The notes under the pieces are model-generated. The model did not search any database and was not told where the DNA came from. It saw nothing but the letters and a program-made list of their open reading frames with translations. 64,000 nucleotides of DNA from Psammoneis japonica (taxonomy: Eukaryota), in NCBI GenBank assembly GCA_008632985.1, contig QPGO01000102.1, forward strand, positions 186,001 to 250,000, written 5' to 3'. Position 1 is the stretch's first letter. Every line of letters starts with the position of its first letter. The translations under genes were made by a program, and so were the position numbers. Shown in pieces: positions 29,994 through 61,802 of the stretch.

Positions 29994-31082
29994 TTATCCA
30001 TAACACCGAATCGGTTCCTTGCTTCCCTTCTTGGCGCTTTGACCGCCCTTGAGCAAGTACTGTTGATGATAATCTTCCGCATCGTAAAAGGTCACTGCGG
30101 GTTTAACTGAAACTTGAAACTTGTTCTTGTCCTCCTGTATTCTTTCTTCTGCCAACGTGCGCTGCTCATCGCTGTGATAGAAAACACCATGTTGATACTG
30201 CATGCTGCTGGCGTCGGTCTCGAACAGATTCATGGTCATTTGTTGGTACTGAGGACCTGACGTTGCGGCTAATCTTTCCATGGCAACATCCAGCAAGGTT
30301 GCATAGGAGACGACTCGAGTGTCGTGAATTACCAAGATTGATTCGATATGTTGACTGTCTCCTTCGCACACTTCTTGATATGATGGATGAGCCGTCCGTC
30401 CTTGTGTGTATCCAACTTTTGTTCCCACAACGCCTGGTGTGCGCATAAAGGCCAATTCTCCACCCCAAAAGCAGCCCAAGGCAAACGTCGCAGCTTGATA
30501 CGGAGATGAAAACTCCTGTGCGTTCGAGATTCCTTGTGAATATACCAACGACTGCTTAGATAACGACGAGTCGATTGAAAGTATCTTTACCCGGCAAGCA
30601 AAGCTCGCCCCAGCAAGCGGAGGATTTCCATCGACAACGATAGCATCATCAGTCACCTCGGTCACATACACCTGGATTCCACCCTCTAGAAAGATTTTCG
30701 ACCCCACCTTGAGAAGATTAATGTCTTTTACGGATCGGATCTTCTTCTTGGCCACCTTAACAACGAGGCTGGGATTTCTTTCTCCCCAACCGGCATCAAT
30801 TGAATCTTCAACTTCTTCTCCCACAGTCATGCCTGTGATGAGTGAGTGCAGTCCCGGGAGATAATTACCCCAGCCTAAAACTAGACTTATAGTGCCCTCT
30901 GTATCAAAGAGGGGATCTGGGACATAACCGTTTTCTGGTGTCATGCTGAATTCCACGGTTACAACATCGCCGGGCTGAGCTGTGATGATGGGTGAGTTCA
31001 TCGAACTGTTCTTCTTTTCGTCTTCGAGATGAAGAGCTGCAGTTTCGATGGTTTCACATAATGTGGTTTCGTCGTATCTCAT
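29994..31082 (-). CDS. msrA: FKBP-type PPIase (SlyD-like) fused to peptide methionine sulfoxide reductase A
   Basis: N-terminal GDVVTVEF..LPGL..GM.VGE..WGERNP..VDGNPPLAG (SlyD/FKBP). C-terminal ALGCFWG, GYTQG, Y.EVC and FYDAEDYHQQYL (MsrA). True start may be further upstream. Confidence 0.88.
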   Translation of the reverse strand: MRYDETTLCETIETAALHLEDEKKNSSMNSPIITAQPGDVVTVEFSMTPENGYVPDPLFDTEGTISLVLGWGNYLPGLHSLITGMTVGEEVEDSIDAGWGERNPSLVVKVAKKKIRSVKDINLLKVGSKIFLEGGIQVYVTEVTDDAIVVDGNPPLAGASFACRVKILSIDSSLSKQSLVYSQGISNAQEFSSPYQAATFALGCFWGGELAFMRTPGVVGTKVGYTQGRTAHPSYQEVCEGDSQHIESILVIHDTRVVSYATLLDVAMERLAATSGPQYQQMTMNLFETDASSMQYQHGVFYHSDEQRTLAEERIQEDKNKFQVSVKPAVTFYDAEDYHQQYLLKGGQSAKKGSKEPIRCYG

Positions 31083-31747
31083 CTTTCTGTGAAAGTGATT
31101 TTAGCATAGGATCTACGAGTAATAAGTCCGCTGTCGTCTTCTGGTCATGGCGAAAAAGTGAACCATCGCAAGTGCAAGCCACGCAAGCGCCGTTGTTGCT
31201 TTCCCGGATCGCCCGCGCACTTCGCCGTGCATAGAGATCTTGTGTAGGAACAATACTGATGCCTACTGCTCTGTAGAAGCTACGAAGAACTCCGTATCTT
31301 AGAATTCTCCGCGAATCAAATCGAACAAAATCGAACGTCGAACAGGCCGGAACAGAATTTTCAAAAAGATGCCCGTGCAAGATCAGTCTTGGAAATCCCA
31401 GTATTGAATTTACTGACCTCTCTACGTAGAAAATGAATGGCCAATAGCATTTCAGCACCACGTCAGCGTATTGAGGGGAAAGTACTCGCGTACGTACGGT
31501 ACGTACCTACGCATAGGAGATTTTTTACAGTATGTTTATGAGGTCATGATGACATCATAGTATCTTCGCTCTTGGCACGCCGTTTCTTCCCTCCGACACG
31601 ACTGAAAGATCCGCGGATACATCAAGATGGTGTTCATTTTGTGAAGGGACAAGGACGGAAGCGCGTATGTAGTCATCTCTTTGCTCCTTGGTACGACTAA
31701 AAAATGTATCTCATAGGACTACAGTACGGTAAGCAATAGATATCAAG

Positions 31748-32615: not shown

Positions 32616-33512
32616 TGGTAGAAAAATATAACAAGATGCATCTCTGATATATATTATAATAATTTTTCGAAGTATTGGTTTTATTTTGAGCTACCTGTAT
32701 GTTGTTGGTTTCTACCCACGGTATGTGAGGAGGAGTGTAGTTTCACCCCACAAAATACTGGTCCCACGAAGCCATTAAAAGTGCAACGCATAGTTGAATC
32801 AATCATCGCGACTTGGCTGGCTGGACACCCTATGCCAGTCACAGATTACCGTCCTTCGCTCACATTTCTCAGCGCACAACCTGAAAAAGAACCGCAAGAA
32901 GACCTGAGAAAGAGTGATGAGTTGGGATTTAGAGATCGCGAAGAGCACTAGTTTACTGCTCAAAAAGTACCCGATAATACCGTGACGATACCAATTAAGG
33001 TCAGTGGAAAATGGAAAATGTGAGAGGGGAATAGCACATCACATCTCAAACTCAACGGTCAGAACCGCAATTCCAATCGCTATTATCACTCATTTAGAGC
33101 AAAGACGTTAATTCAACGGATTCAGAATTGGTGGGAAATTTCGAAATTTCGCGGCTCGATGATGATTGATGATTGATTCTTCCTCCCTCGACGATGACGA
33201 TTGCCACAGTACTGCATACAAGTATTGATATAGCAGCGCAAACGCTAAACTGACTGACTATTATAACCAGCTCCGCCTTTTACAACACACCCGCAATAGT
33301 CAATAATTGATCACAGTTGCCCTACGTTGTACCGTGTCACGGAGAAGACCACCGCATTTCACAGAAGAATGCAGCAATTGTCGCATCGGATGAAAGCAGC
33401 ACTATATGAGCTAGGTGAGTTTGGCTGCAGCGACTTGAAATGGAAAGGAAGGTGATCGCTTTTCTCACACAAACTTTCTCTGTCTGACGACTTAAGCATC
33501 GAACCCCAAATC

Positions 33513-35101
33513 ATGTGCTACTCGGTTACTTCGGATGCTTGTTGTTATAACCTTCTTCTTTCAGCTCATTATCTACAACCAATTTCAACAGGAGTACATG
33601 AACACGGATCATCATCAACTCGGAAGGCTTCGGTCGAACAACAACCAGAGACCAGACGGGACGCTGAATGGCATAAATATCTATTATCACAAGAGTGAGG
33701 AGACACCCCTGCATTCATCGGCTCACTGTGTGGGAGAAAACTATCAGGACACGGCTTGGATTCACAAATCTTGCAGCTTTCAGAATTTGTGCTTTGACAT
33801 GGAAGCGAAAGAATACGTCTTGTTTCGTTCTAGGGAGCAAGAGCAACTCGAAGCTAGAGTGAAACGAGAGCCACTAGCTTCTACTGCCTTCACGATGCAG
33901 GATGCGAAGATTGCAATTGGCGGTGTTAATCCTCAATGGTCGTGGGAGTCAACCGGCGTTCCTCGAATGAAGTGGTTTCCCCAGATCTTATCACAAAGTG
34001 TATTAGAAACGGACGGATATTACCAGCTGGAATCCGACGTTGTATGGGTACCGTTCCATTCCTTGGCTGGCTTCAATCCCGGGCATTTGGTGTGGGATGA
34101 TCTCTTGCCTATATACACCCTGCTATCCATGTTCCAAATGCTACATGGTCGTAATGGAAAGCGACTGTTGCTTACCCGCTACGTACTTGATGGCGAACCG
34201 CTTTGGGCGACTTGCGACTCCAACGATAAGAATAAACAACGATGTATGTCCATGTTTGACAAGTTCCTGCCTCTCATGGGAGTTTTTGACCGAGAAGAAA
34301 CCTTCACAACAAATCAAGAGATGAATCTTGTTGTACCCGATGGCATCCCCCGTTCAAAGTACGTGTGTGCCTCACAAGGCGCAGCGGGATTGGGAATGCT
34401 TACAGACCATGGGATTAAACAACACGGGCGGGAACCTCCAGACTACGAGACTACACACAACATTGGACGAGGTGCGATGCTTTACTCTTTTCGTAACTTC
34501 ATGCTGCAAAATATCAACATGCCAAACATACCACGTAAGTGCCCGCCTTGCTTCAACAGAATAACCTACAGGATGCGCCAACTCTCATCCTGTCCATGTT
34601 CATCTCCCGTTGACTATATTGCGTCGTTCCATCAAAAGTGAACGAGCGAAAAGGACCACTCAAGATTACGTTCTCCATATACTCATCGCATACGAAAGCC
34701 CGGGCCACCGATTTCGCGGAACAGCTCAAAGTGGTGCAAAACCATTTTTGGTGGAATCGTCAAGTTATCGTTGAGTCATACTTCATGCAGAACCTCTCAC
34801 TCGAGGAACAAGTTCGTATCGCTACAGAATCTTCCATCTTTGTCACCGTGTGTGGTGGTGGAGCGGTGACAGCACATTCTTACCGGAAGGATCGAGTTTG
34901 TTTGTGTTTTATGAAGGGCAAGGTGCCAAATTAAACGGGGAAATCATTCCGTTCCCAGCAAGACTAGATTGGGACATGGTAAACAACATGTCTTACCTAC
35001 GGGCCCATTGGGTGCCTCTTGAAACAAAGGATGTCCCAGACCAGCTCAACTTTTTCGTCGATCTCGTCCAGCATGAAGTTGACACCATAATGGCCATGTG
35101 A
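33513..35101 (+). CDS. GT61-like glycosyltransferase (type II membrane; intron ~34535-34637, apparent frameshifts)
   Basis: N-terminal TM, SC.FQNLC, NPGHLVWDD.LPIYTL, LSLEEQV...SIFVTVCGGGAV. Confidence 0.7.
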
Positions 35102-35355
35102 AGCAGTGAGTCACTCGCTATGCTACCTGAAGTAAACCCTCTCTCACAGGTTCCTGCCTTCGCACCGATAACGTGCGGCGAAAGCGAGTTGTGCCCTTTA
35201 CACTGAAGAGGCCTTGGCGTTGTTGCACCCATCCCCATCTCAATCCACTTGTTAGTTCGTCCGGTCCACTTCAGACTCTGGAGTTTTGAGATTCCAGACA
35301 CGATCCTAGCCAACGTATTTCCAGAGGAAAAAGCCATTCTGAGTCTACCAACATT

Positions 35356-36785
35356 CTACTCAACACACTCGGCCAATTTTAAAGCACGTAGAACCGAATC
35401 CATAGCTGTCAACGGTACATCAAATGCTTTCGAATTGCTTGCAGCAAAGTGTATTCTCCAGTACGGTTGCCCTAAAGCATTCGAGTTGTGCCAGATGGAT
35501 CGATGAGCAAGTTGAGGTGTAGACCGATTGGTCATTTGCCCGTGAATAAGTCCCTTGTCGTTAACAGGGAACAACTCAATAATGTTAGTCGGTGCTCGCT
35601 TCTCAGAATGAGTGGCAAAGAACTGATTGTATAGTCCACCGCCATGAATCCCCACAATGGCGCAAACGTCAGCAAAGTAGTCGACGAGTTGAGATACTGT
35701 TGTTAATTTCTTGGCAGAAGGATTGTACAAAGTGAGCTCCGTCTGACCTTGTCCTGTCGTTTGATTCAGACGAGCAATAACTGCATTCTCGTTGGTACAT
35801 TGCCTTGCAAAAGTCCCCTTTAGCTGCGCTCCTTGTCGACTAATCCAAATAATTCTCTTTTGTTGAGGATATTGTTTAGTAGGCTGTGGAAGATTACTCT
35901 GAAACCACTGTGCATGAGTAGGGTGCAGCCGTACTTGATCAGCGTCTCGTGGATATCGTTTTCGTACAATGGACACTCCACCGTCACGGCTGGTGACCTC
36001 TTTGAATCGCGTCGTTGGGTAGAGACGTTCCTTTGGAAACCCCAGCATGGACCATTCTTCGTGAAGAATTTCAGATCCTCTAGCAGGTCGTTCGTACAGT
36101 ATGCGTTCTTCGAAACGATAATTGGTTGTCGAAACAAAGTTCAAAACAGCGTCCAGACCCTGTCGTGCTTGATAGAGAAACGACAGGCATTGTCATGAAA
36201 ATGTTGAAACCAAAAACTTTGAACTCCAACGATGCGGGCCGTGACTATAGCAGAATTGTTTTCGTGCTCAAGAGGGAAAAAGACAAAACAAGTTTCCCAA
36301 GATGTGTCCATCCAGTCTGGGGACATGGAGTTTGTATTTTCTGGTTGCAAGAGGAATAAGTCTTTGTCCTTTGTGCCCGGGACAAAGTTGGGCAGCACGT
36401 GTCGAAAGGGCGGCAGTGTCCCATTGACACAAACTGTAGTATTTGGTTGTATGATTGCGTTTTGCGCACTGTACGTAGAGATTGATTGAACCAATCGAGC
36501 AAACTCTGGTTCACCGGGGTTGAGAAAATCGATGCCATCGCTGTTTGGGAGACTCCACTTAAGTCGCCCCGATTCTCCAACAAGTGATGCCGGCTTCTTT
36601 ATCCTTGTTCTAGTTGGCTTGGAGCGCAAAAGAGCGATTTGAAGGGGCGACTGTAGAGTACTCTGGAGTGTCAACGCGTTGTACCAACAGGACACGAGGG
36701 TCACAACAGCTGGTAAACCAAAAATGAGGTAGCGGTAGTTTCTGTAGCACGGGTGATGATGCTTCTTTCTTTCAGGATTCTTCAT
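35356..36785 (-). CDS. Second GT61-like glycosyltransferase (frameshift near 36143)
   Basis: N-terminal TM, FWFQHFHDN, IIWISR...RQCTNE, F...AIVGIHGGGLYN.F...IIELFP. Confidence 0.7.
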
Positions 36786-37149
36786 AATCGCCTGCTTGGA
36801 TGGTACATTGATAAAGACATGTAGTTCGTTTGCGATGCTCTGGCAGTAAGAGAGAGAACGCTCGTCACCACCGTCTTTTCACCATGGTTCTTGCTTTTTC
36901 TCGTCGCTTGTGCCGCCGCGGAAGAATCGGATGCTCAAAAGCAGGACAAGTTTCACGTGAATTTCTACGGAACTTCAGCTATGACTCTTGCGCCGCTGTT
37001 TCCCCGCCAATTTCGAATTGCCCAATCTGCAGATCATTTTGGATTTTCATGTCACCACCGCCACTTACTCGCATCATCTGTCGCACCGCAAGCCGTTCAG
37101 CAATGCTGTAAGAGGACGGGACTTGCCATTGCTTCACCCCGCTCCCCGG

Positions 37150-40100
37150 TGAAATGAAAGTGGAAAGCAGGGAATGCTGTGTGCAGTCAAAAATCCATTG
37201 TTGCACAGTCGCAACGGATCCGTGGACACCCTTCACTCTTTGACGCAGGTCCCGTGCGCAGAGTCTGGTTTGCCAACAGGTGTGGACTTGGGGTGCGTGA
37301 TGGAATGCATGCAATTAATCCAGAGGACAGCTGAATCAAAAAAGGTTGTCCAAGCAGAAAATTGGTGCTCATGTCAGGAGATCATGAAGTTCTTGGGGAC
37401 AGCTGAGCGAGCGTCAATCTGCGTGACCCGTCTGCACTGCAGCCCAATTTTTGATGACTGAGCCCATCACCAAAAGGTTCAGTCATGAAACATGGCTTTG
37501 ATTCCCTGGAACTTGTTTTGCAATCCAAGGCAAAAGCATTGAAAAAGGCAATGAAGAGGTTTTCGGACCTTGCTGTCAGCTTGTGGAGATGCCTTTTGCC
37601 GCCACGTCGTCAATTTGTTGTGCATCATCTGACAAGTTTGGCAGATGGGAGAGAGCAAAGTGGTCATTCAGAAATGAATTTCCCATGCCAGATGAGGCCA
37701 TTTCCTGCAGTTTGGGTGGCAGCTTGAGTTGCGTGCTGCACAAAGTTGTGCAGATGCATCAGCACATCCACGCTGGTGGCTGACGGCGCACTCTCCGCAT
37801 CTTTGAGAATGGCCAAACTCAGCCATGCAAGGGGGGTTGTCATTTGTCTTGTGCACCAAATTCTTGAACATCAACTCATCTTTCAAGCACTGTCCCCACA
37901 TTTGGCTTTTCCCATTCCCGCTGGGCACAAAAACTGTGCCGGTGCTCTGCCTCCTGGTGATGAGCAAATGCAGGAATGACGGAGCTCTCAAAGCCAACAG
38001 CATGTGCCAGCTAAGTGCAGCAAGGTTGACCCAATTGCAAAAATCAAGCATCCCAGCCAGATTTGCATTTAGAGCAATCATGGCAAGTTGACACAAGCCA
38101 TCACTTGGGTCGCTGCAAATGCCATTTTCACAGCTTGCAAAACAATCCCTTGGTCTGAAGACGCAGCAGTGCACGCAAATGTGAAGCATGTCTTCAAGAG
38201 GTGAAAAATTGTTGCAAAAGTTGTGCACACAGATCTTGGGCTAAAAATGATCTGGAACAAAGTGCCCCCAATTCAGGCTCTTGTCTTTGGTCTGTGCACA
38301 AAGTCGCTGCTTTTTTTCTCACATTGCATGCTCCCAAAAGTCAATGGCTGCTTGGACCACACCTTCAGATCACTTGACATGGGAGACCTGCATGTTCTTT
38401 GTTGTGCAATGCGCCAGTTGAATTTTTAAGGCAGAATTTCCATGACACTTTGCAGGCAGCTTCCAATCACAGCATGGGTTGTCGAGTGCAGCTGACTCCT
38501 GATGAGGGTCATTCCAAGCCTCTTGTCCATTCATGCTTGATGTCTGACAAGGGCATGGCAACCACGTGAGAAAAAACAAAAGGCAAACATCAACTGGTCC
38601 ATTCTCATGCACACTGAGCAAGAAATGGTGGCTTGTTTCAAATCAAGCAAAGTGAGTTCAGCTGAAACTGGAAGGGTGTGATTTTTTGGAGCTGACATGG
38701 ATGACTGAAATGGGTCCATGGGACTGCAAAAAAGTGACAGCAATGCAACATTGTTCAATCGGAAGCTGGAGCAGAGCTGACTGCAAGTCCCACATGGCCC
38801 GTGAGTGATGCAAAAGTGTTTGATTGGGAGCCAGAGCAGAGCTGACTGTGAGCCCCACATGGCCCACAACCAAAGTTGTGGTTGAATTGTGTGTGTCAAT
38901 TCAAGGATGGATCTGCGTGCTGCGGTCTAATTTAAAACAGCTTGCATTTCCCGCACTTCACCGTGTTGTTTTGACATGCCTCGGAACACCCCCGAACACT
39001 CACGCGTTCGTCAAACCCTCATGGGGGCTGTTGGACGGCTATAAGAAATGCACATTTGGCACTTCAAATGCCACTTGTCGACCTGTGCCCTGTTGTCAGG
39101 TCGAAAAAACCGCCAATTTTTGCTAAAATCGGGCTTCTTGTGGGAGATTGGTGGCAACTTTCCGGGAAATGCCGACAAGTGGCATTTGACTGGCCATTGA
39201 CATGTCTGCAGTCGTCAAGGTAAAACTGGCGCATGGTCACACCTGTCGTTTGAGCACTCTGGGGTGTCTGGCGAATGGACAAAGTTCGACCCATCGCTGA
39301 AATTTTTTTTGCAAACGGCGCGCGCATTTGCTGCGATTCATCCGGGCCATTTTCATAAAAATTGCGAGCTCCCAAAAAACAGACCGCAGCACGTAGATCC
39401 ATCCTCAAAGCTCAGAGCCCCACACTTTGGTGGTGCTTTTGTCCTGTCCAGACTTTGCATCTCCACACAGCTGTTGGGTGTTTGACTTTTGTCAAAGCAA
39501 CAAGACCATCGGCAATCCAAGCAACAGCAGCAGCCACACCCACAGTGCCAATTTGTGCCCCAACCCCAATCACTTTGTTCTCCACTGGCTTGTGCCTTTC
39601 TTTCTGGATTTGCCAAATCACAAAAGGAGAAGATCCAAGCAGTGCAGATTGAAATGTTGTGGTGCACACTGCTTTGAGAACAACTCACAACAGCACCTGT
39701 GTGGCAAAAGCAATGTTGGTTGCATCTCTTGCAGAGAACCTTGTCATCACTCTGATCCCATCAAACCCCCTTTCCTCTCTTTGACATCTCATTTGCAGAA
39801 ATTTTTCTCTTCACATCTTGGCAAGGTGCGACAAAGGATTTCTAAGATGACAAAAACTGAACAGCACCACAGCTGAAACCCGCAAATTCCAAGCCATGAT
39901 GTCAGCACTCAGATGATGAGGGCAAGCCAACAGCAGTTAAAACTCAATGACTCCAGCTTTGGCTGATGAGCACAGCTGAAATGCCGCGGTGCCTGATGAG
40001 TTGCACTCTGGTTCCTCCTTGAGCAACCACACACTCTGGCCAACATGGCAAGGCTGGAGGTTGCTGCAGCTGTCACAAGAAGCCAAAACATGGGCACACA

Positions 40101-40800
40101 ACAGGGTGTTGCTGTGTGGGAGTGCACAAAATTCTCCAAGTGAACAAGGCGAACTCAATGGCTCTGCAAGACCAGTGAAAAGAGAACAAAGCAACATGAT
40201 GAGTGCTCAAAGAGCACATTTTTGGAGCAAAGCTCTGCGTGGAACTCCAAGGGTCAAAAGCCAGAGCCAGAGTTGAGGCCAACACAAACACCAAACAAGT
40301 TGGCAGGGGGGAGGGGGGTGTTGAATGTGCGGAACATTGTTGCTGTTGCGGCGCGCGCATCAAATTTGTCTCAAGTTCATTTCCTGTTGGCCATTGGAAG
40401 GAACAAGATTGGACAGTGGGGGCAAGAGCCAAAACTGTCCCCCCCGAGCAAAAAACCCTGCAAAACAAAACAGAGGCAGCGCAGGCAACAAAACAAGTGT
40501 TCATCCATTTTCAGCGCACAAGTCTCTCAGATCACAACCACCTCAGGTGAGGTGTCTTTTGTCAGCAGCAAGCAGCAACACCCAGATTTTGGTTGGGTTG
40601 GCAGGGGTGCGAGAGAAGAGACAAGTTGTCCTGGCAGCTTGGGTGGAGTCATGGACCACACTGGCCCATCATCCTTGTTGCTGTGGTTCAGCCAAGCGCA
40701 ACCCCAAGGTGGAAAAATGTGCTGCCTGGATCTCGGATTGTGGTGTTCATGTTGAGAGGACATTGGCAGGTCTGTTTGATCGCAGATTTGTGTTTTTGCA
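37150..40800. mobile_element. Degenerate repeat/TE relic, TpA-depleted, with a CpG-retaining island at ~38920-39400
   Basis: Compositional signature and Tyr-free remnant ORFs. Confidence 0.55.
39064..39189. repeat. 17-bp perfect inverted repeat, 92-bp spacer
   Basis: TCAAATGCCACTTGTCG (39064-39080) / CGACAAGTGGCATTTGA (39173-39189). Confidence 0.85.
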
Positions 40801-40813
40801 CAATTTACAGACT

Positions 40814-40932
40814 TCCGGTGTGATGCAGGTGGTTAGCACACTTGCCTTTCACGCAGGATGCCGAGTCTCTGCACACAACATGTGCGCAATAAAAAAAATC
40901 CTGCCACTCTACCAGGGTTCGAGTTTCTGTAC
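40814..40932 (+). pseudogene. Fragmented tRNA-Glu pseudogene copies (5' two-thirds at 40814-40861, T-arm fragment at 40910-40932)
   Basis: Aligns to the intact tRNA at 40968. The 5' fragment differs only at TA sites. Confidence 0.85.
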
Positions 40933-40967
40933 ACCTCATGTAATAAAAATCCTGCCGGTCTACTAAT

Positions 40968-41040
40968 TCCGGTATGATGTAGGTGGTTAGCATACTTGCC
41001 TTTCACGCAGGATACCAGGGTTCGAGTCCCTGTACCGGAA
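40968..41040 (+). tRNA. tRNA-Glu(TTC)
   Basis: Acceptor stem TCCGGTA/TACCGGA, anticodon arm CTTGC-CTTTCAC-GCAGG, T arm CAGGG-TTCGAGT-CCCTG. 73 nt. Confidence 0.93.
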
Positions 41041-43289
41041 AATCACTTTTAGGCGGTTGTGCTTTTGCAGGATTTGAAGCATCACGATGTGTCGATTCGA
41101 CATCGCTTTGTCACTGCTCTTTTGCGCTGCACTGTGCTAAAATAAATGCACAAGACTCCTGCAAGTGACACGGTGTAGTGGCATTTGCATTTAAAGTCAT
41201 GCATGTCACTGACATGGTTGTCTTCTTGTCACCATTGTTTGCACTCAGCCTTGGTGCGCCGAGTGAAGGCTCGCATGGATGGAGCGCGCGCGTTTGTTTT
41301 CGCACGTTGATGCGCGTGGATATAACACTGCTCATTCACAGGTGTTTGTGCTTTTCAAGACAAATTCTGATGGTGCGTACGTGCGTCGTGCGTGCGTTGG
41401 CGGGGCTTGATGATGATTCGAAATCTGTTCGAGCGAGCAAGCCGCGCACAAGCGAGCGAGCTGGCGAGTGCCATCCAAGAAACTGCTGCCTTCCTTGCTT
41501 TCCCTTGGTCAATTTGGCCAAAAACCTCAAGTTCGCCCTCAACTCTCAACAAATCAATGCACATCAAAACATGCACCGGTCCACAAACATCATGCATACT
41601 GTGTGTGGATGAGTCTCGACACGATTCATCGTTGCGTTCTTGCCTTGCTCCTGGACTCTTCTTCATTCTTCATTCGGCACATTTGGCAGAGTCGTCATGA
41701 TGCGATGCACGCTTTACAAGTTGCAAGTAACAACGTTTTGGAGCTACTGTATATACAGTATTGATTTGCATTTTGCAGCAGAAGCACCGGTGTGCATTGC
41801 AAATGTAACGCTCGAAAAATGGTAAGGCAACGATGCTATATATCTTTCTGTTTGTCATGGGCATCTTATACTATTTGCTTTGTTTGTATTTTGTACATGT
41901 GTTATTGCCTGCGTGTTGATGTGATTTGAGACATGCTACTTGCTTTGATTGACATATCATTGTTGTTTTTTGAATATGGTGAGTATGTAATATCTGATGA
42001 ATCACGAGGACGACGAATAAATTTTGTGAATCTAACAAGTACTCCTTTTTCTTTTTTCAGACAATCAATGATACTGGTACAAGTCTATCCTCTAACATCA
42101 CCGCTCCGACTGAAGTGATACGCGTGTTGATGATATTCCAAGTCTATCCTCCAAGAATGCTGCTCCGACTGAAGCGCCGCGTGTTGAAGATTGTGACAAT
42201 CTTTCCCATCAAGGCGGTGTCTGATTTTTTGTGCTTGTTGCATTTCTGATCTACAGAGAAAGGCCACCGAACGACTCGTACCTCATCAATCTAGGGTTGT
42301 CGTCACAGGTCAACACTTTGTCGTGACGAGTGTCAGCGAGTAACAGAAACTACAAAAGCACCTACCGCAAGACGTACTACCTCAAGACATGCTGTGCCTC
42401 TACATGCCCTGCTTCTGTGGCGGAGTTTTAGAGATTTTGACACTGTCCGACTTATACACGGGCGTTGCTGATTTTTCATTCATTTTATTTGTTTGGGCTT
42501 TGCGTTGCGTTCGGCTATCTTAACACAAACAACAATGTAACATCTTGTTGTGTTTGACGAGATGAAATAATGTTGTGATGCCGACGAAAAACCGGTAGTA
42601 CGAGGACAGACTGTCCGTGACTGAGCAAGTGGGATTGACGAGTGGCAAAAGATCCACGAAATTGGCGCGCCGGAATTCCGCGGTCATCAATCTCAGAATC
42701 GACGAAAAGAAGGCGACTGTCGCATCGAGCTGCTTTGTTTTGTGAGTGCACTTTGAAAGGTAAGCCTTTATCTCCGTTCATGTCAATTTCTTGTGTCGTT
42801 TATACTTTGAATATATTCTCACTTCTCGTGTTTGGTTTGCCGTCGTGCTGATCGTTTCAACGATATTGATAGAGTCGACTCCATCGGCACACGAGGTGCG
42901 TCGGACGACAAGAGACTCCTATTGACAGTATCATACCAACAGCGTCATCCCCATGTGAGTGTTCAATCGACAATACTTTTCTTCAATTTCCTCTTTACAA
43001 AATAATGTATTGCTCATTGACTCTTTTGTTCCGTGTTGATTGTTGGTTCGATATCGTTCAGCGTGTCGGTAACGATCGAATTGCAGTACAACGCGCACGC
43101 TGCACTCGGCTCGGTATTGGTGGCATTACACCAATCGCTATCATTTGACACGGTGAGTACTCAATCATATTGTTATTTATACTGCATCACTCTTTGTTTT
43201 TGATGTACTTCTAACCATTCGTCGTTTGCTCTCGTGATGCCGATGGATTCGCACGTGATTCGCACCGCAGCTAAATATATCGCATCATC

Positions 43290-45906
43290 ATGCCTCCCAA
43301 GCAAAACAAGCCCCTGGTCAAAGGGCAAAAGACTATTGGCAGCTTTTTTAGTCCCCGTGCCGAGGCCAATGCAACGACTACGACGACCGCCAAGACACCA
43401 TCCAATGCGCCACTGAAACGAAAAGCCTCGGAAACGCCTGCAGGCAGGAAGGCCAAGGTATCCAAAATTACTGAATTGTCCACTGCGCCAATCAGTAGTT
43501 TCTTTCTGTCTCCGCCACCTGCTCCTACTCTCAAGTCGCCTTCTACTATTGTTGCCGACTATCGTCCTACTGGCGACGAATCATCTACCAAGAATGCCGA
43601 TACCACTGGTAACGTCAGCAGTGACGAAAACGACAAATCGTACATTCGAGAAGACGATGGGTCCGACACCAACACCCATGGCAATGAGATGTCACACGAC
43701 GAGGAGTGCTTTTTCGAGCGATTGATCATGCCAATGTTTAGCTCCAACGTGGCGCGAGAAACAGCCAAGCCGTATTGTGAAGCCATGGTAGCACTTGCAG
43801 AAAAGCACCACGTCATTGAGCGTCCAGACGGATACTATTCCAACCAAATGCTCACCCGAGCTGTCACCAAGAGCCCTGGTCTTTACGGTATTCAAAAGGA
43901 AGCACTGGAAAAGATTGGTGCAAGCAGCAACATGCACAACCGCTGCAACATTTCAAAAGACATCGAGCAATACGACCAATTTCGTGTCATGATGAATCTT
44001 GATTGTACTGATGCCGAATTTGATGCAGAGATGCAAGTTGTTTACGAGAACTTTATTGATGCTTTTGACAAAGCTGAGGGATTGAGTGGGTTTCAACATT
44101 TCTTTTTTGTTGAGCTATTGCGAGACCGCCATGGGGAAAGCCTGGGACCCAAGAAAATGATTTGGTTATTAATGTTGGAATTCGGCCTGCAACAGAGAGA
44201 GAATCTTCCGGCGCCGTTTGAGTGTATGATGTACAAGGAATCTGTTGCGCAACTCTATTATGATTTGGCGGAATCAAACTGTAACTCGGTCACCAATCAT
44301 CTTTCCAAGATCATTGGTTGTGCAAGGGAGAATCCGTCGCTTCTATTCGTTTTCGCCATCTCTAGTTGGAAGACTGGACACGATGGTTTGTCCAGCAAGA
44401 TCTTGGCCACCCTTTGCATTGTTTTGCACGAGCATCTACAATGTGATACGCTCCCTTATCCAGCAGTCCATAACGCCGTGACTGCTGAAGAGAAGTACTC
44501 GACGGCGTACTCGGACCAACAGAAGGCTACCGCTCGGCTTGTCTTGTACTACCATGTGCAACAGTTGATTGAATCACCATTTGGGGTTTTATTCTTGGAC
44601 TCAAACAACTTGATATTTCGTGATGACCCCAATTTCCATCGGAGCGCAGCTCAGGTTCTTGAGGACCATGGCTTTCGAGAGGTTGAATGTATCCTATTTG
44701 GCGAGATTCGTCTATTTTTGGATTCGAGCGATCTTCATGCGGTTTTCTTGCACAAGCCGCTGTGCATTGCGAGTGACAGTCGGGCGTGCATTCCAATGAT
44801 GTTTCGTGTTCGCCGTGCATTGTCACTGTCAGTACTCTGTAACGTTGCTCGAGTGCTTCGGGACGAGGAACTTCTGAACCCAAGCATTAAGTTTCGCAAT
44901 CCCATCAATGGCATTCTTGGGTTCCAGGTGGGTCGACTTGGTCTTCATCAAAACCTGTTTGTGTGTTCAGCCATTGGCAAGGATTGTTTCTCTGGAGCTG
45001 AAACGAATGCTTTGGTTGAGAATAACCTTGCTAAAACGGTTGGAAAAGACGCGCCTGTGTCAAAAAGGTTCGCAAAGAGTGTTCGGCAAGGTGAGTCTGT
45101 CGTTGCATTTGCTTTTGTTCTTTTGCGTCGTTGTGTCAGACTAACAGCAGCTTTTTTTGTGTTTTCGTTTGTTGCCAAGCGGGAAGAAACGTGCAGCAGA
45201 TGTATTGCGCCCTGTTGATCGAGTCTTGCCATTCCAGTTCCGCTCCATCATCAGCCATGCTCAGCAAGGCGAGGAAGAGCAAATGTATCTTGAGATGCGT
45301 GAGCTTGCCAAGAAGGGTTTGGGTGGCACAACTGCAGACATGAAAACTTTCAACTATAGACTCAAAGAGACCATCATGAACCAAGCCATTCCTGGTTCGG
45401 CTTTGGCACTACACCTCATTTCTCTTCATGAGCGACATGCGCAAAACACGGGCAATCGTCAATCTGGACCTGGCAAGGGTAAAAGTAGAGCAGAGGTTGC
45501 GGACAACGATGCAATGGTGAGGAATCTCGTGGATGCTTGCCAACCAACGGCAAGTGGTGTGCCTGGACGTACATTTTGGGCAAAGGAGGTAAGCGGAGAA
45601 CGCTTTGTAGAACCAATGGGGCGCTCGTTGTCGGATTGCGGGGACCATCTTTTTCCCGGCGACAGCTACAATGAAGTTGCAGGCATGACATGTGAAGGCA
45701 TTAGAGAGCGTTGCAAGTCTTGCCGAACGTTCAAGGGAAACGCCAATTCTGTCACTTGCGAGCGGCATCCTCATTTGGACATCAAGAAGGTGAAATGCAA
45801 GAGGGACAAGAGACGCAAGGTCAGAGTCACTGTGGGTGGAATGCAGGGTGGAGTTGCGAACGGACATGTGTTGTGTCAATTTGTGTTCAGTGATTGCCAA
45901 AGCTGA
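43290..45906 (+). CDS. Repeat-borne gene copy A: ~840-aa unknown protein with N-terminal PIP-box-like motif (intron 45091-45179)
   Basis: Long ORF MPPKQNKPLVKGQKTIGSFF. GTGAGT donor and CTAAC branch site. 1-nt loss in the A-run at ~45062 relative to copy B. Least mutated copy. Confidence 0.7.
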
Positions 45907-48900
45907 GCATGACTTCTTTGATTGGAGCAAAAGTTGCCGTGCTGGGAAAGAAGCCCCATTTGGTTGTTGAGCTTGTGTTTGGTGATCCTCGTGAATGCGA
46001 AAAAGGTGCTGCAGCACAGTGGGGTGTTGCAGACTCTGCTGCAGAGAAGTGGACCGTGCTGCAGACATTTGATTGATCCTCGTGAATGCAAACAAAGCAA
46101 TTTCATTTGATCTTCATTGTGCAGTGTGCAGCAGTTGGCTGTGCATTTGCTCAGTGGAAAGGGTGCATTTCTGATTTGAAGTTTTGTTCCTTTTTTCATG
46201 TCTCGCTGTGTGGAGGTGCGCAATCTTTGCTGTCAAAAATTGCGCTTCAAGCAGTTGTGCTTTTGCAAGAAGAAATTGATGCCTGTGCAGTGCTTTTGCA
46301 ACTTTTGAAACATCGCCTTGCGACAAACGTGCCGGTGCAGCAATTGCAAACACTCCATCAGAGTCGTCGTGACGGGTTGCTCATTGTTTTCTCACACGCT
46401 CCAGACACAACACACACATTTTTCATGAAGTGACAATGAAACTGGAGACGCTGTTTCACCACGGTTGATTCCTCATGCAAGGTGAGATGCTGGTGAGATG
46501 ATCCCCCCCATTTGTGCAAATGATGTGTGTGCACAAGCTCTGTCTTGACATGTGCTGACAGTGTGTCTTTCTGCTTTTTTCTTTCCGCTTGTCTCAGTGC
46601 AGTTGCTTTTGATTGTGTCTCTCATCTTGTCCAAGGTGGAGTCTTCTCTTGGGTTCCGAAAGCTTCAGATCTGTGGACAAGGGCCAGAATGTGACTCCCT
46701 CCTTGCCAATCCAGGGCTGTCGCCAGCAAGTCCCCAGCTTGTGTGACGAAGTGTCGGCAAGTTACAAAAATTGAAGACCCATCTCATGACAAGCAGAGCA
46801 CATCAAGACACGCTTCAAGGCTCGCCAACTGGAGCGCAGCAGCATGAAATCAAAGTTCTCCGAATCTTTTTCATCTCAAGTGATGGCAAAGAGGCTGTCA
46901 GATGCAAAACACAAACAGCACATGTGCTGCATCAATGGCGGTGGGATCTAAAAAGGGAGCTGTTTTAGCATGGGAAAAGGCTGGCAGAGCAAAGGTCAAC
47001 AGGATGAGCTCAAAGCATGGTCGCCACATGGAAGGTGTCGGAGCAAAGGTTGACAGGATGCGCTCAAAACGCAAGCACCGAATGGAAGGTGGCAAGGCTG
47101 GCAGATCAAGTGGAAAGAGTGGTTTGAAGCACAAGAGCAACTTGCCTGTTGCTGAAAAAAGTGAAAAGTTCAAGAAACGTCACTCCCAGCTGGGAGGTCT
47201 GCAAAGGAGAAATGTGCTTGTTGTGGTGCTTGGCCCGGTTGTGCTTTTTTTTTTTGTTGTGCGCATGCATCGCGCATCATTGAGCTCTGTCGTGTGTCGG
47301 CAACGGTGCTTTTTGTTTTGCACATGCATGGTCCGGGGTGGTGGAAGGATGCAGAAAACCAAGGCAAGGGAAGCGAGTGAGCCAAAAACAAGGAAGGATG
47401 GCAGGATTTGGATTGCATCACAAAAAACAGCGGTGGCATCATCATCTCATCAAGCGATGTGCATCGCCTGTCTTCCTTCGGCATTGCGGTTGCCTGCCCG
47501 GCGCACTTGTGCATGTTCTCACCATCAATCTGATTTGTTGAGCCAGTGCTGCAGTGGTCAAGCTGCTGCATGAGCAAGACTCTGAAATGACACACCAAGA
47601 AGTGACAACCGACGCGCTCCAGCCCTGGGCGGGACTCCGTGTGACATTCGGCCGTAGAAGCCTGCGCACGAGCTCTTTCAAATGTGACACCCGAATCTCA
47701 GGAAACAAATGATCTCAATGAATGCATTCAAAACGAACAAAAAAATGATGGAAATGTTCTCCTGGTGACTTGGGATGTTGACAAAAACCAAGACTCGCCC
47801 CTGGCAAAAATTCGCCTCATGCATTCTCCAACAGCGACGAAGCCTTCTTGGCCATGACAGTCGTCTTTGCGTTGGTCTTTTGTTGACCATCCTTTTCATG
47901 TGTCCATTTTTCTTTTTTGTGGGCTGTTGTCCAAATGATGATTGCACCACATCTGGCGGGCATTGAACGCACGCTCTTTTGAGCTTTTGTGGTCTCTCCA
48001 GCAGCACCCCATTTTTTGCCCACATTGTTCTCTTGTGCTCTTTGTTCTTTTCTTCAGATTGAGACCATGATGAGAGAAATCATGCATCTTGCCTTGTTGA
48101 TGGACAAGGCAAAATGACTGCCGTTGAGTCTCAGCATGCTTTTCACTGTGTGGCGGCATTTGGATTCTTTGACTTTGAGGGTCAGTGTTTCACGCAGGCA
48201 CTGCAGCAACACAATGGACCATGGCATCATGGCAACAACTCCTTTTGGTGGCTTGACACAGAGAGACATCCTTTTCTGCCAGAGTTGCCAGTCTGTGGTC
48301 ATTGGTGAGAACGAGCGGCATTGAAGAGAGAACAATCTCTCCATCTGCCAGCTGCCGGTGCATTGTAGATTGCTGCGCTTGTGTTGTTGGCAAGCAGCAG
48401 CACACCATTTCACTCTCAGCATTGTTTCATCATTTTAGTCACCATTTGTCTCACACTCAGTCCACTCTGTTTTTGCTGACAATGTCAGATTGGATGAAAT
48501 CAACATGCAGAGGGGAGACGTCATGCATCGTGCACTGTGCCTCATGGACTGCAAAATGGTTGCCGTGTCATCATCAGTGACAAGAAAAGCCACGCTGCGC
48601 AATGATGTCAACGAGCGGCACTGCTGATCAGAGTGGTGTCTCAATTTCCAATTTCTGCATCTTGCTGTGCCATCAGATCTGCAGATTGTCATGCACATGG
48701 ATGAGTCTCAACACAACTCATCATTGTGTTCTTGCCTCACTCTTGGACTCTTCTTCATTCTGAACTCATCATGCCAGCATTTGGCAGAATCATCATGATG
48801 TGATGAACACTTTGCAAGTCACAAGTGATGATGTTTCAGAGTTTGCTGTTTGTGCAGCACGGCATTGATTTGTTTCCTGTTCAGCATTTTGCAGCAGAAG

Positions 48901-49580
48901 GACCGGCATGCATCACAAATGAAACACTCAAAAAATGGCATGGCAGCAACACTGCAAATCTTTCCATGTGTCGTGGGCATCTCATGCTGTTTGCTTTGTT
49001 TGCATTTTGCACACATGCTGTTGCTTGCGTGCTGGTGTGCTTTGAGACGTGCTGCTTGCTTTGATTGACACATCATTGCTCTTCTTTGAATGTGGTGAGC
49101 ATGCAACATGTGATGAATCACAAGGATGACAAACAAATTTGTGCATCTGGCCAGCACTCTTTCTTCTCTTTTTTGCAGACAATCAACGATTCTGGTCCAA
49201 GTCTGTCCTCCAAGAATGCCACTCTGACTGAAGTGCTGTGTGTGTTGATGGTGGTCCAAGTCTGTCCTCCAACATCAGAGTGCACGAAATGTTAAAAATG
49301 TGCAGATTTGCGTGATGACAATTTGTTTAAATGTTGCAAAATGTTGTTGTCGTGTGATGACAGGCCAACCTCTGGTTGCAAGTTTGGCACACCAACATTG
49401 CAACAACTTGTTGAGAATTGTGCACGCTGTTTTTCACTGCACCCACATCGCCATTTCTGCCTCCACCTTGTTGCCATGTGCCAATGCGTGATTGCATTGC
49501 CACACAAACCTTGGTTTGTCAATTTTTGCAAACATCATTTTAAACAAGAAAAACATTTCATCGGCCAAGTCAATTCCTTG

Positions 49581-51600
49581 TCACGTCTGCAGTGCAATGA
49601 CCGAGTGCCATGTCAACTGTGCACACATTTTCTTGCTGTGCAACTCTCTCAAACCAAGCTGACAATCATCATCGGACTCGTCTTCATTGGACTCGTCTTC
49701 ATCGGATTCGTCTCCTCCATTGTTCGTTTTTCCTTTTGCGCCTTCCTCCTGCTCATCGTCATCACCATTGTCGTCCCTGCTGCTCTCCACCATTGGGCTG
49801 TTCATTGCCTTCACCTTCTCTGCATCACCGGTCGGTGCTGTCTTCTTCTTCTTTTTTGCTTCTCCAGACTTCTCGTGCTTGCTTTTCTTGATCTCCACAT
49901 GCCACTTTTCAAACTCCTTGCCCTCCTTGGAGTCTCTGTCTTTCGTCACCTCTGTGCACAAATCGTTGAACCGAATGATTCCGTCGTCTCCCCAAGACTC
50001 TCGTTGTTTCTTTGGCTTTGTGCACCAAGGGGCAGGCCTTGTTTCTTCGGGCTCCATTTCCTCACCCAATTCTTCCACCGCCTCCTCCTTGTTCCTGCAT
50101 GCCCACACCTGCCAACAATTCTCCATGGCCAACAGCGCCAAAGCTTCGTCACCTGCCGCAAACAACTGTGAGACCTGTGCATTCCCAGTTTTGATGGCGC
50201 AACTCCATGCCTGCTTTTGCTTGGTTTGAGGCAGGATGTGATCACAGAACCACTTGCATGCCTGCTTGTTCCTTCGTTTGCCGCCAGCGACAGTGCCCAG
50301 GCTGAACGGATCCCATGTCGGCACAAATGGGGTGTCATTCTCTTCATTCTTGTCATGGCTTGACTTTTTCCTGTTTTGCTTTTTCCTCCTGACTGCCGCT
50401 TTGAGTTTCTTTTCTTTTTCCTTTCCCTCTTCCTTGGTGACAACGCCTGTGTGGACAAAGCATCACCGTCATCCTCTTGTGAGATGCGCGCAACTCTTGA
50501 ATCACACACATTGGTCACTTGACTTGCGGGCCATTGCCTCTGCCCCAACAGCCGAACACACCGTGTTTCTGCGATTGTTGATTTGCCTTTTTGCCGCCTT
50601 TTTTGCCCATTCCTCCCAAGTTCCTGACCAATTTGAAGTGTCCATGTTGCCACCAGCAATCTGTTTCTTGACAAACATTGAGACGCTCCCATTGCTTGCC
50701 AATTCTGATGGACTGAGAAACTTCACCTGTGGAAAGAGATCATTTCTGGCCACCTTCTCTGCTTCTGATTTCAATGCACCATGCGCTGCCTGCGCACCTG
50801 TTCTCTTCAACACTGCCTGAAGTCTCAGGCTCATTGGCTTGATGGTCTCATTTTTCTTTCTCTTCTTTGCCGGTGGTGCTGGAGACGACATCTTGATCTT
50901 TGCACGGCAGCAATGAGAGCAGTGTCACTGTTCGACAGTGCAGCCGTCGTCTGGGTCATGTTGAGACAGCCAGCCACTCTGTTTTTCTCTGCAACACTGC
51001 ACAAATCATTGTCAGCAACACTGAAATTTGAAAACACATTTGTGTGCAACAATGAACAGCCCAACTTGCTTTTTGACATGGCTGTCATTGCGTTCCAACG
51101 GAGACAATGTCCTTTGTTTTGACAGCAAATAAAAAAGAACAATGTCCACTGCAAATGCCAGATGAAAAATCAAAATGCAGACACGTCATGCCCATGAGAA
51201 TCATCCAAATCTGGAAGACAATGCAATGTTTGCCATTTTCCCGCCATTTTTTGCGTGTTGTTCTTCTTTTCCCTTCTCATCCACAAGACAAGGACGACGA
51301 GTGTGAGTCTTGATGAAGGCCCTGTCAACATTGACCAGAGAACCATGAGGCAACGGCATCAGCACACAGACTTGGTCAGTCGCTGGCAGCTTGATCACAA
51401 ACAAAGCAACTGGCTTTCAACGCCTGAGAAGACTCAGCACTCACCTGAGTTGCGGGTTGTCCCTGTCAAAGCAATTGGGGACAATGTTTTGGTTTGTGAA
51501 CAATGTCCAGGAGCAGCAGAAGCACAAGAAAAGGCCCCATTTGTTTGGGCTGCACAGGACAGAAGGAAGTGTTGGTCAGATTTGTTTCTAAAATGGGGTG
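49581..51600. mobile_element. Relic of a Plavaka/CMC-like DNA transposon (accessory gene on minus strand, possible transposase C-terminus on plus strand)
   Basis: Minus-strand remnants LFPQVKFL..W...RQINNRRN and GDEALALLAMENCW..W...W...GI.RFN.L...V..DR. Plus-strand remnant LRVVPVKAI...V...R..WSDLF. These resemble proteins I recall from such elements in diatoms; not verified. Confidence 0.45.
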
Positions 51601-51614
51601 CGCGTGTCAATCTG

Positions 51615-53688
51615 TCATTCACTCACAGTGATCACCCAACTCTTTCTTGCAAACATGATGAATTTGATCCTTTCAGAATTGGCAAAGTCATTGCAGCACA
51701 CGTGAAGCAGTGCGGTGCGAGCACCTTCCGTTGCTTTTGTTCTGATGTCTTCTTCAGAAACTCCAAAATGAGCTTCTTCCTGATTGGAGGGCTTTCCCAA
51801 CCACCGTTCTCGTTGTTCTTGGGTTGCAAGGTTGCTTGCAAAGAACATGCTCGCACAGCTCTTTGCAGCATCCTTGTCCATTGTGCATGTGTCGAACACA
51901 GCCGACAATTTCTTCCATTGTTTGACAACCTGGAAGAAGGTTGCAAGAGCAAAGGGAATCACCATGTTCCCCCCTTCTTCATTTTTGGAGAGCAAGGCCC
52001 GAAGATCAATTAGATTTTGGAAAAATTGAGTCGTCCCAAAATGACTGTCGCACCACTCTCCATCTGGCATCCAGCGGCAGTCCAACATGATTTGGTCGAA
52101 CCCATGATTGTCAAAATCAACAAGTTTCTCAAACTGCTGCTTGACTCTCTTGATGAAATCTCTTTTTTTCACATTGCAATTCAAACGCAGATCAGGATGT
52201 CCATCTTGGAGAGAAACTGTTGGAACGATGTTTGTGGTTGTTTTGTTAGATTCCTCAAATGCCATTGCGCGGGCCTCGTCTCGCCTGAGTTGGTCGGACA
52301 ACACCAAGGCCACCCCCTTCTCAGAGCACAATTCTTGAGAAGATGGTTGCCTTGCATTGAGCGGATGGGTCATCCCCAACCACAGCACATTGTGTGTTTC
52401 CCCGTTGGCTTCGTCACTTGTGAAACAATCTCCTGAGTCGCTGTGGTCCTCTTCACCCTCGGAGCAATGTGCAACTTGGTTGTGCTCATCATCAACAGGC
52501 TCTTCGCTTTTGTCCTCTTCACCCATGCAAGCAGTTGGAAGTTTGCTTGTTTTCTCGTCAATTGACTCCTCCTCGCAATCGTCACTTTTGTTCATTGCGA
52601 ATGACAACAAATCACCGGCGGCCTTCTTCCTGTTAGAACGAGAAATCAATGTGACAATGTTGGCACAATCAGACAGAAAACAAATGTGATTGCCATGAAA
52701 AAGCAACCTCTCTTTGCCATTCCAGCTCGGCTCGAACTTCATCAATCGACACGAATGGGACTGGCTCCCATTCACACCTTCCAAACCGCGTGATCATTGA
52801 TTGCCCATCAGAGAACAAGAGCAACAGATGCTGTCCGCAACAAAAGACATCGCAGATTCCCATCTTTTCACGAGCTGCACTCAGGTCACACAGTGAAGAC
52901 TCTGGGCCATTCTTTCCATGGTCTTCCAAATCAAAATCACCCTCTGTCCATTCCAAGAGCAAATCGCGCTTCTCCACCGGGACCTTCATTTCCTCCATTT
53001 GCTTTGCCACTCCCAACTTGGCTGCTGGATGGACAAGATTACGAAGGTCAGGGTGAGGATGGATCCCCATGCCACACAGCATCAATGTCTGCATGGAGTT
53101 CATGCATCTGAGCTCTCCACAATCAGCACCTGCATGATCCCATGTTTGGACCACGGTTTGAAACATGTCCTCGATCGCCTTGTGGCCAAACGTTGGCTTG
53201 CCAACATTGCCATTGATCCTGTCGATGACAACAACCAGTCCGCCAACAAGCAAATCCATCAAACCATTGAGTTTCATCCCGCACTCTGCCACATGAACCT
53301 CCTCGAAATCGAGTCCCAGGCTCTGCATGTGTCGGTTGTTGCGATCCCCCGCAATGCTGCCGAGTGGCCTCGCAGCTTCTCTGAAGCAATGAAGGACACG
53401 ATCGCCAGCCACGAAAGGATGCTTCACAGCATCTGTGTTGCACAACAAGCAGCAAAAATGGGAGAATCCGGTTTGACACCCAGCCACAATGGCGCAACGA
53501 AAGCAATCGTGTGCTTTGTCATTTTTTTGCGCACACATCCCATCGCACGTGCGTTGTGCGTGCTGCACGCGCACGTGGTCAGGATGGCGGAAGGACGCAG
53601 AAAACCAAGGGAAGCAAGGAAGGCAGGATTTTTGGATTGTTTCATAAAAAGTTTCTGCCACTGTCATCAAGCGACATGCATCGCCCAT
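51615..53688 (-). pseudogene. TpA-eroded remnant of a large unknown gene (two overlapping frames, 339 + 389 aa)
   Basis: Protein-like composition with an acidic linker, but almost no Tyr and excess Cys/His. Paralogous fragments at 47230-47600 and 58620-58740. Confidence 0.55.
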
Positions 53689-61747: not shown

Positions 61748-61802
61748 ACCTCAAGACGCAGTACCTCAAGACGCAGTACCTCAAGACGCAGTACCTCAAG
61801 AC
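61748..61802 (+). repeat. 15-bp tandem repeat, ~3.7 units
   Basis: ACCTCAAGACGCAGT x3 plus a partial unit. The paralogous site near 42360 has only ~2 degenerate units. Confidence 0.9.

Follow-up and report, generated by a model that had tools for sequence, protein, structure and literature searches.

The window, by which is meant the whole 64-kb stretch of DNA that was analyzed, contains a gene for tRNA-Glu at 40968-41040 on the + strand, called with the anticodon ttc by ARAGORN. The same segment scores 59.8 bits against the Rfam tRNA family RF00005 in cmscan (gathering score, 29), and it includes six TA dinucleotides. A TTTT run at 41047-41050 (+ strand), 7 nt past the 3' end of the tRNA, is presumably the Pol III terminator. 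Thirteen environmental copies of tRNA-Glu(UUC) are identical to this gene. With a cloverleaf scoring above the gathering score, and with conservation that is accompanied by compensatory changes in the stems (below), 40968-41040 has the sequence features to be expected of an intact tRNA-Glu(UUC) gene.

Two partial copies lie upstream on the same strand. Copy A begins with 48 nt from the 5' end of the tRNA (40814-40861; 50 nt at 92% in a repeat search), offset from the intact gene by 154 nt. An earlier, sequence-only reading of this DNA had drawn attention to the differences between the two, and the intact and copy sequences that it quoted both match the window exactly. All four differences within the 48 nt fall at a TA of the gene, two being TA>TG (A>G at 40820 and at 40860) and two TA>CA (T>C at 40826 and at 40839). 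As had also been pointed out, the TTAG of copy A (40833-40836, with its TA at 40834) keeps the TA, and both CpGs (in CCGG and ACGC) are the same as in the gene. The remainder of copy A (40862-40909, + strand) lacks 7 nt of the T arm after 40862. Beyond the deletion it resumes as GAGTCTCTGCAC, which includes C>T at 40868 and, at 40872, a fifth TA loss (TA>CA, GTAC>GCAC); it then continues into a spacer that it has in common with copy B, and the earliest TA kept in this remainder is at 40890. The contexts lost in copy A are consequently GTAT, GTAG, ATAC, ATAC, and GTAC, and the one kept is TTAG. Copy B (40910-40966, + strand) consists of 26 nt from the 3' end of the tRNA together with the spacer, which the repeat search finds to be the same as that of copy A. 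All of its TAs are retained, and it serves as an internal outgroup for the changes in copy A. At 40924-40925, copy B has two neighboring C>T changes (TCCC>TTTC), one of which is present in copy A (TCTC, 40868); the shared C>T suggests that the 3' part of A and copy B come from one altered unit by a 51-nt tandem duplication. When tRNA finders were run on the intact gene and on its copy, as the earlier reading had proposed, only the intact gene was called; copy A was missed both by ARAGORN and by cmscan (E<=1).

The direction of these changes can be judged from relatives of the gene. Metagenome contigs were searched with a pattern made up of the D loop and the anticodon arm only, so that all four variable sites were left free. 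The search yielded 81 tRNA-Glu(UUC) copies at 70 loci or contigs, with 12 distinct sequences among them. The acceptor and T stems of these copies vary in pairs (GGT/ACC, GAT/ATC, CGT/ACG, and others). A7, T13, T25, and A46 are present in 81 of the 81, and the states of copy A are found in none of them. Furthermore, copy B has the TA of the intact gene at two of the sites that are TG or CA in copy A. Because none of the relatives carries the states of copy A, and because copy B agrees with the gene, comparison of these sequences confirms TA as the ancestral state at the copy A sites, from which it has since been lost. The argument of the earlier reading, that the foldable tRNA is ancestral and TA has been lost rather than gained, is thus borne out by the environmental copies and by copy B together. 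Functional isodecoders carrying the TG or CA variants, which that reading had named as evidence to the contrary, do not occur among the 81 environmental copies, a comparison that the host's other tRNA-Glu genes lie outside.

Eleven of the environmental loci (L003, L011, L015, L018, L019, L024, L027, L034, L053, L055, and L063) carry two intact tRNA-Glu(UUC) copies in tandem, 144-194 nt apart, and for this reason the window, too, probably had a tandem pair ancestrally. Broken tRNA-Glu copies were seen at two further environmental loci, L009 and L042. The flanks of the environmental tRNA loci have no homology to the flanks in the window, and hence there is no orthologous spacer to serve as an outgroup; these flanks are not comparably TA-poor (TA o/e 0.46-1.36). 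It would follow from this arrangement that two tRNA-Glu(UUC) genes formerly stood in tandem about 154 nt apart, and that the upstream one now lies inside a hypermutated block.

That copy A sits on the edge of a larger TA-free domain is a point beyond the earlier reading. Across the whole 64-kb window, TA o/e is 0.34, CA 1.46, TG 1.44, and CG 0.71, and about 28 kb of the window is taken up by sharply bounded TA-free blocks. Such blocks lie at 7101-9500 (TA o/e 0.04-0.06, CG 0.12-0.14), 17001-22200 (TA o/e 0.05-0.06, CG 0.08-0.18), 25301-27200 (TA o/e 0.04, CG 0.15), and 37001-40880 (TA o/e about 0.07, CA/TG about 1.7, CG 0.3-0.44). The largest, at 45601-59900 (TA o/e 0.04-0.09), contains the paralogue c2 and the partial fourth copy of the same family, high-depth dispersed repeats, and a 181-bp tandem array, all of which are described below. 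Overall, TA o/e is 0.06 inside the domains (0.04-0.09 among blocks) vs 0.55 outside. The corresponding values are 1.75 vs 1.24 for CA and 1.68 vs 1.25 for TG (range inside, 1.6-1.9), and 0.43 vs 0.94 for CG (range inside, 0.08-0.8). The lowest 2-kb bins in the blocks have 2 TAs.

At the tRNA locus the boundary can be placed closely. The interval 39939-40805 is without any TA; copy A comes next, with its one TA kept, and TAs are dense from 40890. Copy A therefore forms the final 70 nt of the domain that ends at about 40880. Its 3' unit is without TAs up to 40872, whereas the tandem duplicate of that unit in copy B, 51 nt downstream, has lost none, and the right edge of the domain must consequently fall at 40873-40889, inside copy A. 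This edge is about 80-95 nt upstream of the intact tRNA-Glu gene, a position from which it may be speculated that the gene acts as a domain barrier. In the other direction, the TA-free state of the largest block begins at about 45.6 kb, inside the paralogous unit c1 and about 400 nt past its ORF; block edges, then, do not follow the edges of duplications.

That paralogous unit provides a second polarized test. It is about 4.5 kb long, and three copies and a partial fourth are present in the window. Paralogue c1 (41606-46105, + strand) is TA-normal and has an ORF at 43275-45215. Paralogue c2 (about 53500-58534, + strand) is the hypermutated one and lies inside the largest TA-free block. Paralogue c3 (61000-64000, + strand) runs off the end of the window, is little affected, and polarizes the changes in c2; a fragment of the same family is found at 47250-49272. 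Between c1 and c3, dN/dS is 0.31 in the frame of the long ORF vs 0.63 and 1.11 in the two alternative frames, and by the value of 0.31 both look like real genes. The 647-aa ORF of c1 has no relatives in a large protein database and no usable Atlas match. The ORF of c1 and c3 may accordingly be classed as an apparent orphan under purifying selection, of which c2 would be the dead paralogue.

A first three-way alignment (2.2-2.4 kb) was a mosaic and partly misaligned, and its counts were set aside; those given here come from cleaner alignments of 853 nt and 2.5 kb. Over 2.5 kb, c1 has 54 TAs and c2 has 9. TA in c1 has become CA or TG in c2 at 44 sites, and the reverse is seen at 1. At the 11 sites that are TA in both c1 and c3, c2 is still TA at 2 and has TG or CA at 9; of the 32 CG sites common to c1 and c3, c2 keeps 21 and loses 11. 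The loss of TA in c2 thus exceeds both that of CpG (9/11 vs 11/32, p=0.012) and that of other dinucleotides, 8.9% of which are lost (p=3e-8). TA losses and gains number 15 and 1 on the c2 branch and 6 and 2 on the c3 branch. In addition, the ORF has 17 Tyr codons in c1 but 2 in c2, where His and Cys codons are more numerous. Together, the three paralogues support the direction of loss and also support a faster loss of TA than of CpG. The latter had been put forward in the earlier reading on the basis of copy A, where the difference in fact is not significant (5/6 TAs vs 0/2 CpGs lost, p=0.11); it holds in c2. Since c1 and c3 are themselves repeats, yet little affected, duplication alone is insufficient as the trigger. 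In both the direction, TA>TG/CA, and the regional confinement, the loss seen in copy A and c2 matches what would be expected of TpA-targeted hypermutation.

The neighbors of TA also seem to matter. Among the TAs that survive in the blocks (n=100), CTAA/TTAG accounts for 29, TTAA for 14, and CTAG for 8. Measured against a baseline outside the blocks that is mostly coding DNA, these Y-T-A-R contexts make up 51 of the 100 survivors (218 outside), and R-T-A-Y contexts (ATAC/GTAT, GTAC, and ATAT) make up 2 of the 100 (407 outside). The survivor counts indicate that R-T-A-Y is lost most readily and Y-T-A-R least. In the polarized c1/c2 set this context effect is a trend only (R-T-A-Y 15/18 lost vs Y-T-A-R 4/7, p=0.30). 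The losses in copy A and its retained TTAG fit the same order.

Within the TA-free blocks, none of 106 ORFs of at least 100 aa reaches the Pfam cut-off; there are only 8 sub-threshold matches, and no viral or transposon protein domain is found among these ORFs by Pfam. Long open frames on both strands of the blocks (for example, 51618-52793 and 57390-58508) exist because TAA and TAG are nearly absent, and such spurious frames would mislead gene finders. The ORFs of the gene blocks match common eukaryotic families, namely COG5, an MCM-binding protein (MCMBP), an FKBP-MsrA protein, a pyridine-nucleotide oxidoreductase, and an EF-hand protein, as well as a Roc GTPase, metalloprotease domains, and GT61; one domain scan took in 80 of the 114 ORFs listed. 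For both MCMBP and FKBP-MsrA, every relative that carries a name is a diatom, from Attheya, Chaetoceros, Nitzschia, Fistulifera, or Seminavis (35-46% identity), and the best unnamed matches are at 42% and 65% identity. These relatives lead us to regard the host as diatom-like and as having no near neighbor among sequenced species. The FKBP-MsrA fusion ORF (29997-31100, - strand) has a two-domain architecture that is the same in many relatives.

Contigs of a public sequencing run, designated X1, were aligned to window positions 33001-53000. Their summed depth, which is not equivalent to copy number but does reveal dispersed repeats, is about 10-400 times that of single-copy sequence at 38.3-39.7, 47.0-47.7, and 49-53 kb, all within domains. 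Of two further runs, X2 gave contigs on parts of this stretch only, and X3 gave none. At 49009-53000 the summed depth is 4,000-25,000 vs about 56 for single-copy sequence, marking a high-copy dispersed repeat without a Pfam domain. One X1 contig omits the 505-nt segment at 38902-39406, and summed depth is very high in the bins that include this segment (38337-39670); the insertion polymorphism probably reflects the presence or absence of a small mobile element at the locus. A 181-bp tandem repeat (3.6 copies, 94% matches) lies at 59137-59783, inside the largest TA-free block.

Three single-copy X1 contigs match the window at 99.3-99.8% and give a view of more recent change. X1 is possibly from the same sample as the window assembly (another haplotype, for example) and so is not independent of it, and with this proviso, differences between the two are 4-fold denser in the domain than in the gene block (22/3170 vs 7/4000, p=6e-4). 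Eight of the 22 domain differences are CG<>TG/CA; TA in the window is matched by TG or CA in X1 at 2, and the opposite is seen at 1. Relative to the TAs available, 2/11 differ in the domain vs 2/164 in the gene block (p=0.02). One X1 contig has CCAG in place of the TTAG of copy A, and by the ancestry of the tRNA this is a further TA>CA change that has removed the last TA of the copy. The X1 difference there is TT>CC at 40833-40834, of which the second change removes the TA and the first is outside a TA context. CpG decay is at present commoner than TA loss, as is expected when TA is nearly exhausted, and the hypermutation is probably acting in place and still active.

The hypothesis that we favor, to which we would give a probability of roughly 0.8, is one of TpA>TpG/CpA hypermutation that takes place in situ, is targeted to domains, and is presumably enzymatic. 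In this model, the A of 5'-TA-3' would be converted to G on either strand, so that TA becomes TG or CA. The process would be restricted to sharply bounded, repeat-rich domains without genes, from which about 95% of TAs have been removed, and CpG decays to TG or CA in these same domains. The intact tRNA-Glu gene and the Pol II genes nearby are spared; R-T-A-Y would be the best substrate and Y-T-A-R the worst. The comparisons show the direction of change, its regional confinement, its context, action on both strands, the decay of CpG, and, between near-identical sequences, the higher divergence inside a domain. As to chemistry, the likeliest candidate by analogy is an enzyme that deaminates adenine in DNA to hypoxanthine, which has been proposed for the alga Bigelowiella natans, although we would put it at somewhat below even odds. 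The signal for targeting is most likely a silenced or methylated state of the chromatin, the methylation probably being of cytosine.

A different chemistry could produce the same direction and the same targeting. If the thymine of TpA were oxidized by a TET/JBP-like enzyme, yielding a modification of the 5-hydroxymethyluracil (5hmU) or base-J type, mispairing or misrepair would give T>C; since TA is self-complementary, T>C and A>G at TA are indistinguishable from sequence. Precedents for such a modification do exist, base J being located on thymines that precede an A in the telomere repeats of kinetoplastids, and 5hmU favoring TpA in dinoflagellates. However, we know of no modification of this type in diatoms, and no TET/JBP domain is found in the window ORFs scanned, among which there is no deaminase domain either. 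Furthermore, the only description of this signature that was found puts forward adenine deamination, which in the portion of the preprint available is likewise unproven (Mettrop et al., bioRxiv 10.64898/2026.01.13.699255). Thymine oxidation is consequently regarded as rather unlikely.

It can also be asked whether any targeting is needed at all. A neutral TA>TG/CA bias might operate genome-wide, with TA kept only by selection, and the domains would then simply be unconstrained DNA at equilibrium. Such a bias would account for the coincidence of TA-normal blocks with recognizable genes and of TA-free blocks with the lack of any, and the gene blocks too have a TA o/e of only 0.5-0.65. Yet in COG5, MCMBP, and MsrA, the TAs whose loss could be synonymous (those at codon phases 2-3 and 3|1) have an o/e of 0.40-0.66, vs 0.04-0.07 for the same phases in the c2 ORF and 0.00-0.12 across ORFs of the TA-free blocks. 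Short intergenic stretches within gene blocks are TA-normal as well. In addition, the edges are sharp to about 15 nt, and the TAs kept from 40890 onward lie in a spacer that is apparently unconstrained. The retention of synonymous TAs, the normal TA content of non-coding DNA in gene blocks, and the failure of the edges to coincide with duplications all indicate a process that is aimed at the domains, and a general bias is therefore considered very unlikely.

Still less probable is an artefact of assembly or base-calling, in which modified TA would have been read as TG or CA by a signal-based sequencer. Nanopore data are indeed subject to systematic consensus errors at modified motifs, but the X1 contigs (built of exact 31-letter words, at a depth of about 56) are equally TA-free, with 0.2-1.3% differences, and contigs of this kind are unlikely to arise from noisy signal-based reads. 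Two other origins were rejected on compositional or mutational grounds: GC-biased gene conversion, since GC in the domains is 0.46-0.55, about as elsewhere, and only TA is affected; and UV TA-photoproducts, since the changes are transitions restricted to domains.

A reversed reading of the tRNA pair, in which a RIP-like process has turned CpA into TpA and copy A either preserves the old state or derives from another isodecoder, has in its favor that fungal RIP does leave TA vs CA/TG differences between duplicates. However, the environmental relatives and copy B both side with the intact gene, RIP enriches TA whereas the affected DNA here is at 0.06, and the c2 branch shows losses of TA with a single gain; this reading is hardly credible. 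Chance clustering in an ordinary decaying tRNA pseudogene, for which it can be said that just 4-6 substitutions are involved, may be dismissed, since position alone gives p=0.0011 for all 4 differences falling among the 10 of 48 positions that belong to a TA and p=0.0005 for 5 or more of 6 substitutions falling among 12 such positions of 65 alignable, and since the same signature extends over 28 kb and recurs in an independent paralogue.

Domain-targeted loss of TpA, then, has a close parallel in one known system. In B. natans, DNA of integrated giant viruses and virophages undergoes TpA-specific hypermutation, and in mutation-accumulation lines two integrated viral regions took 231 single-nucleotide mutations, of which 230 were A>G or T>C, every one of these on TpA (Mettrop et al., bioRxiv 10.64898/2026.01.13.699255). 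Elsewhere in that genome there are clusters of windows that are poor in TpA and rich in CpA and TpG; adenine deamination is proposed as the cause, and an ADAT2-like protein is named as a candidate, without proof, in the portion of the preprint available (bioRxiv 10.64898/2026.01.13.699255). That portion makes no mention of diatoms or stramenopiles (bioRxiv 10.64898/2026.01.13.699255). It was the only account of this signature found, with none for diatoms, in a literature search that covered few subscription journals.

As far as the available portion of the preprint goes, the two cases are alike in that A>G and T>C fall almost exclusively at TpA, giving TpG and CpA, and in that only particular regions are affected, beside DNA that mutates normally, with TA depletion and CA/TG enrichment in clusters. 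They also differ in several respects. The host here is, by the named relatives of MCMBP and FKBP-MsrA, a diatom-like stramenopile, whereas B. natans is a rhizarian (chlorarachniophyte) alga. The targets here are without viral or transposon domains by Pfam and include a dead paralogue of host type, in contrast to the viral insertions described in that portion. The loss is near saturation in the window, with TA o/e at 0.04-0.09 in the blocks vs a Rho of 0.45 reported there for the NCLDV region. CpG decay alongside, a visible preference for R-T-A-Y, and boundaries defined at the level of single bases are features of the present case when set against what is available of the other. Conversely, de novo events were seen in B. 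natans, whereas here the process is known from sequence comparison.

Other systems share parts of this pattern. Fungal RIP converts C to T at CpA, creates TA, and lowers GC. The present process resembles it in being regional, in disabling repeated or non-genic DNA through a dinucleotide-specific transition, and in leaving visible compositional islands. However, the flow here is the opposite, TA>CA/TG, and the resulting composition is opposite as well; furthermore, RIP hits all copies, whereas here c1 and c3 are largely spared and c2 is saturated. Deamination of 5-methylcytosine, which causes CpG decay in methylated repeats, cannot remove TA. It does correspond to the low CpG of the same domains (o/e 0.08-0.8) and to the CG<>TG/CA class of differences between the window and X1 (8/22), but in c2 the loss of TA outpaces that of CpG (9/11 vs 11/32). 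Enzymes of the ADAR and TadA type have a neighbor preference in which A>G follows a 5' T or U. ADAT2/TadA, ADAR, and APOBEC are thus comparable in the conversion of A to G after T or in the hypermutation of unwanted sequences as a defense; unlike in those cases, both DNA strands of the chromosome are affected here, in place, rather than one strand of RNA or cDNA.

The window appears to hold a second, independent case of TA>TG/CA hypermutation, in a genome of stramenopile type and on DNA that is apparently non-viral, and the tRNA pair within it is a compact marker both of the direction of mutation and of the boundary of a domain. A broader model can be offered tentatively, as a possibility that we consider on balance doubtful. 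In this model, diatom-like algae would possess a chromatin-directed A-to-I defense that acts at R-T-A-Y, removes nearly every TA from repeat-rich domains that are silenced, and destroys any genes trapped there, while stopping within about 15 nt at active transcription units, possibly including a Pol III tRNA barrier. The system might be ancient or widespread across SAR, because the same signature is present in a chlorarachniophyte. Should TA-erasing hypermutation prove to be general, it would form an A-directed counterpart to fungal RIP and to defense of the APOBEC type. It would also account for the extreme TA poverty and the long spurious ORFs in parts of such genomes, which matter for gene prediction, and it would suggest that an enzyme exists in nature for the editing of adenine in double-stranded DNA of chromosomes.
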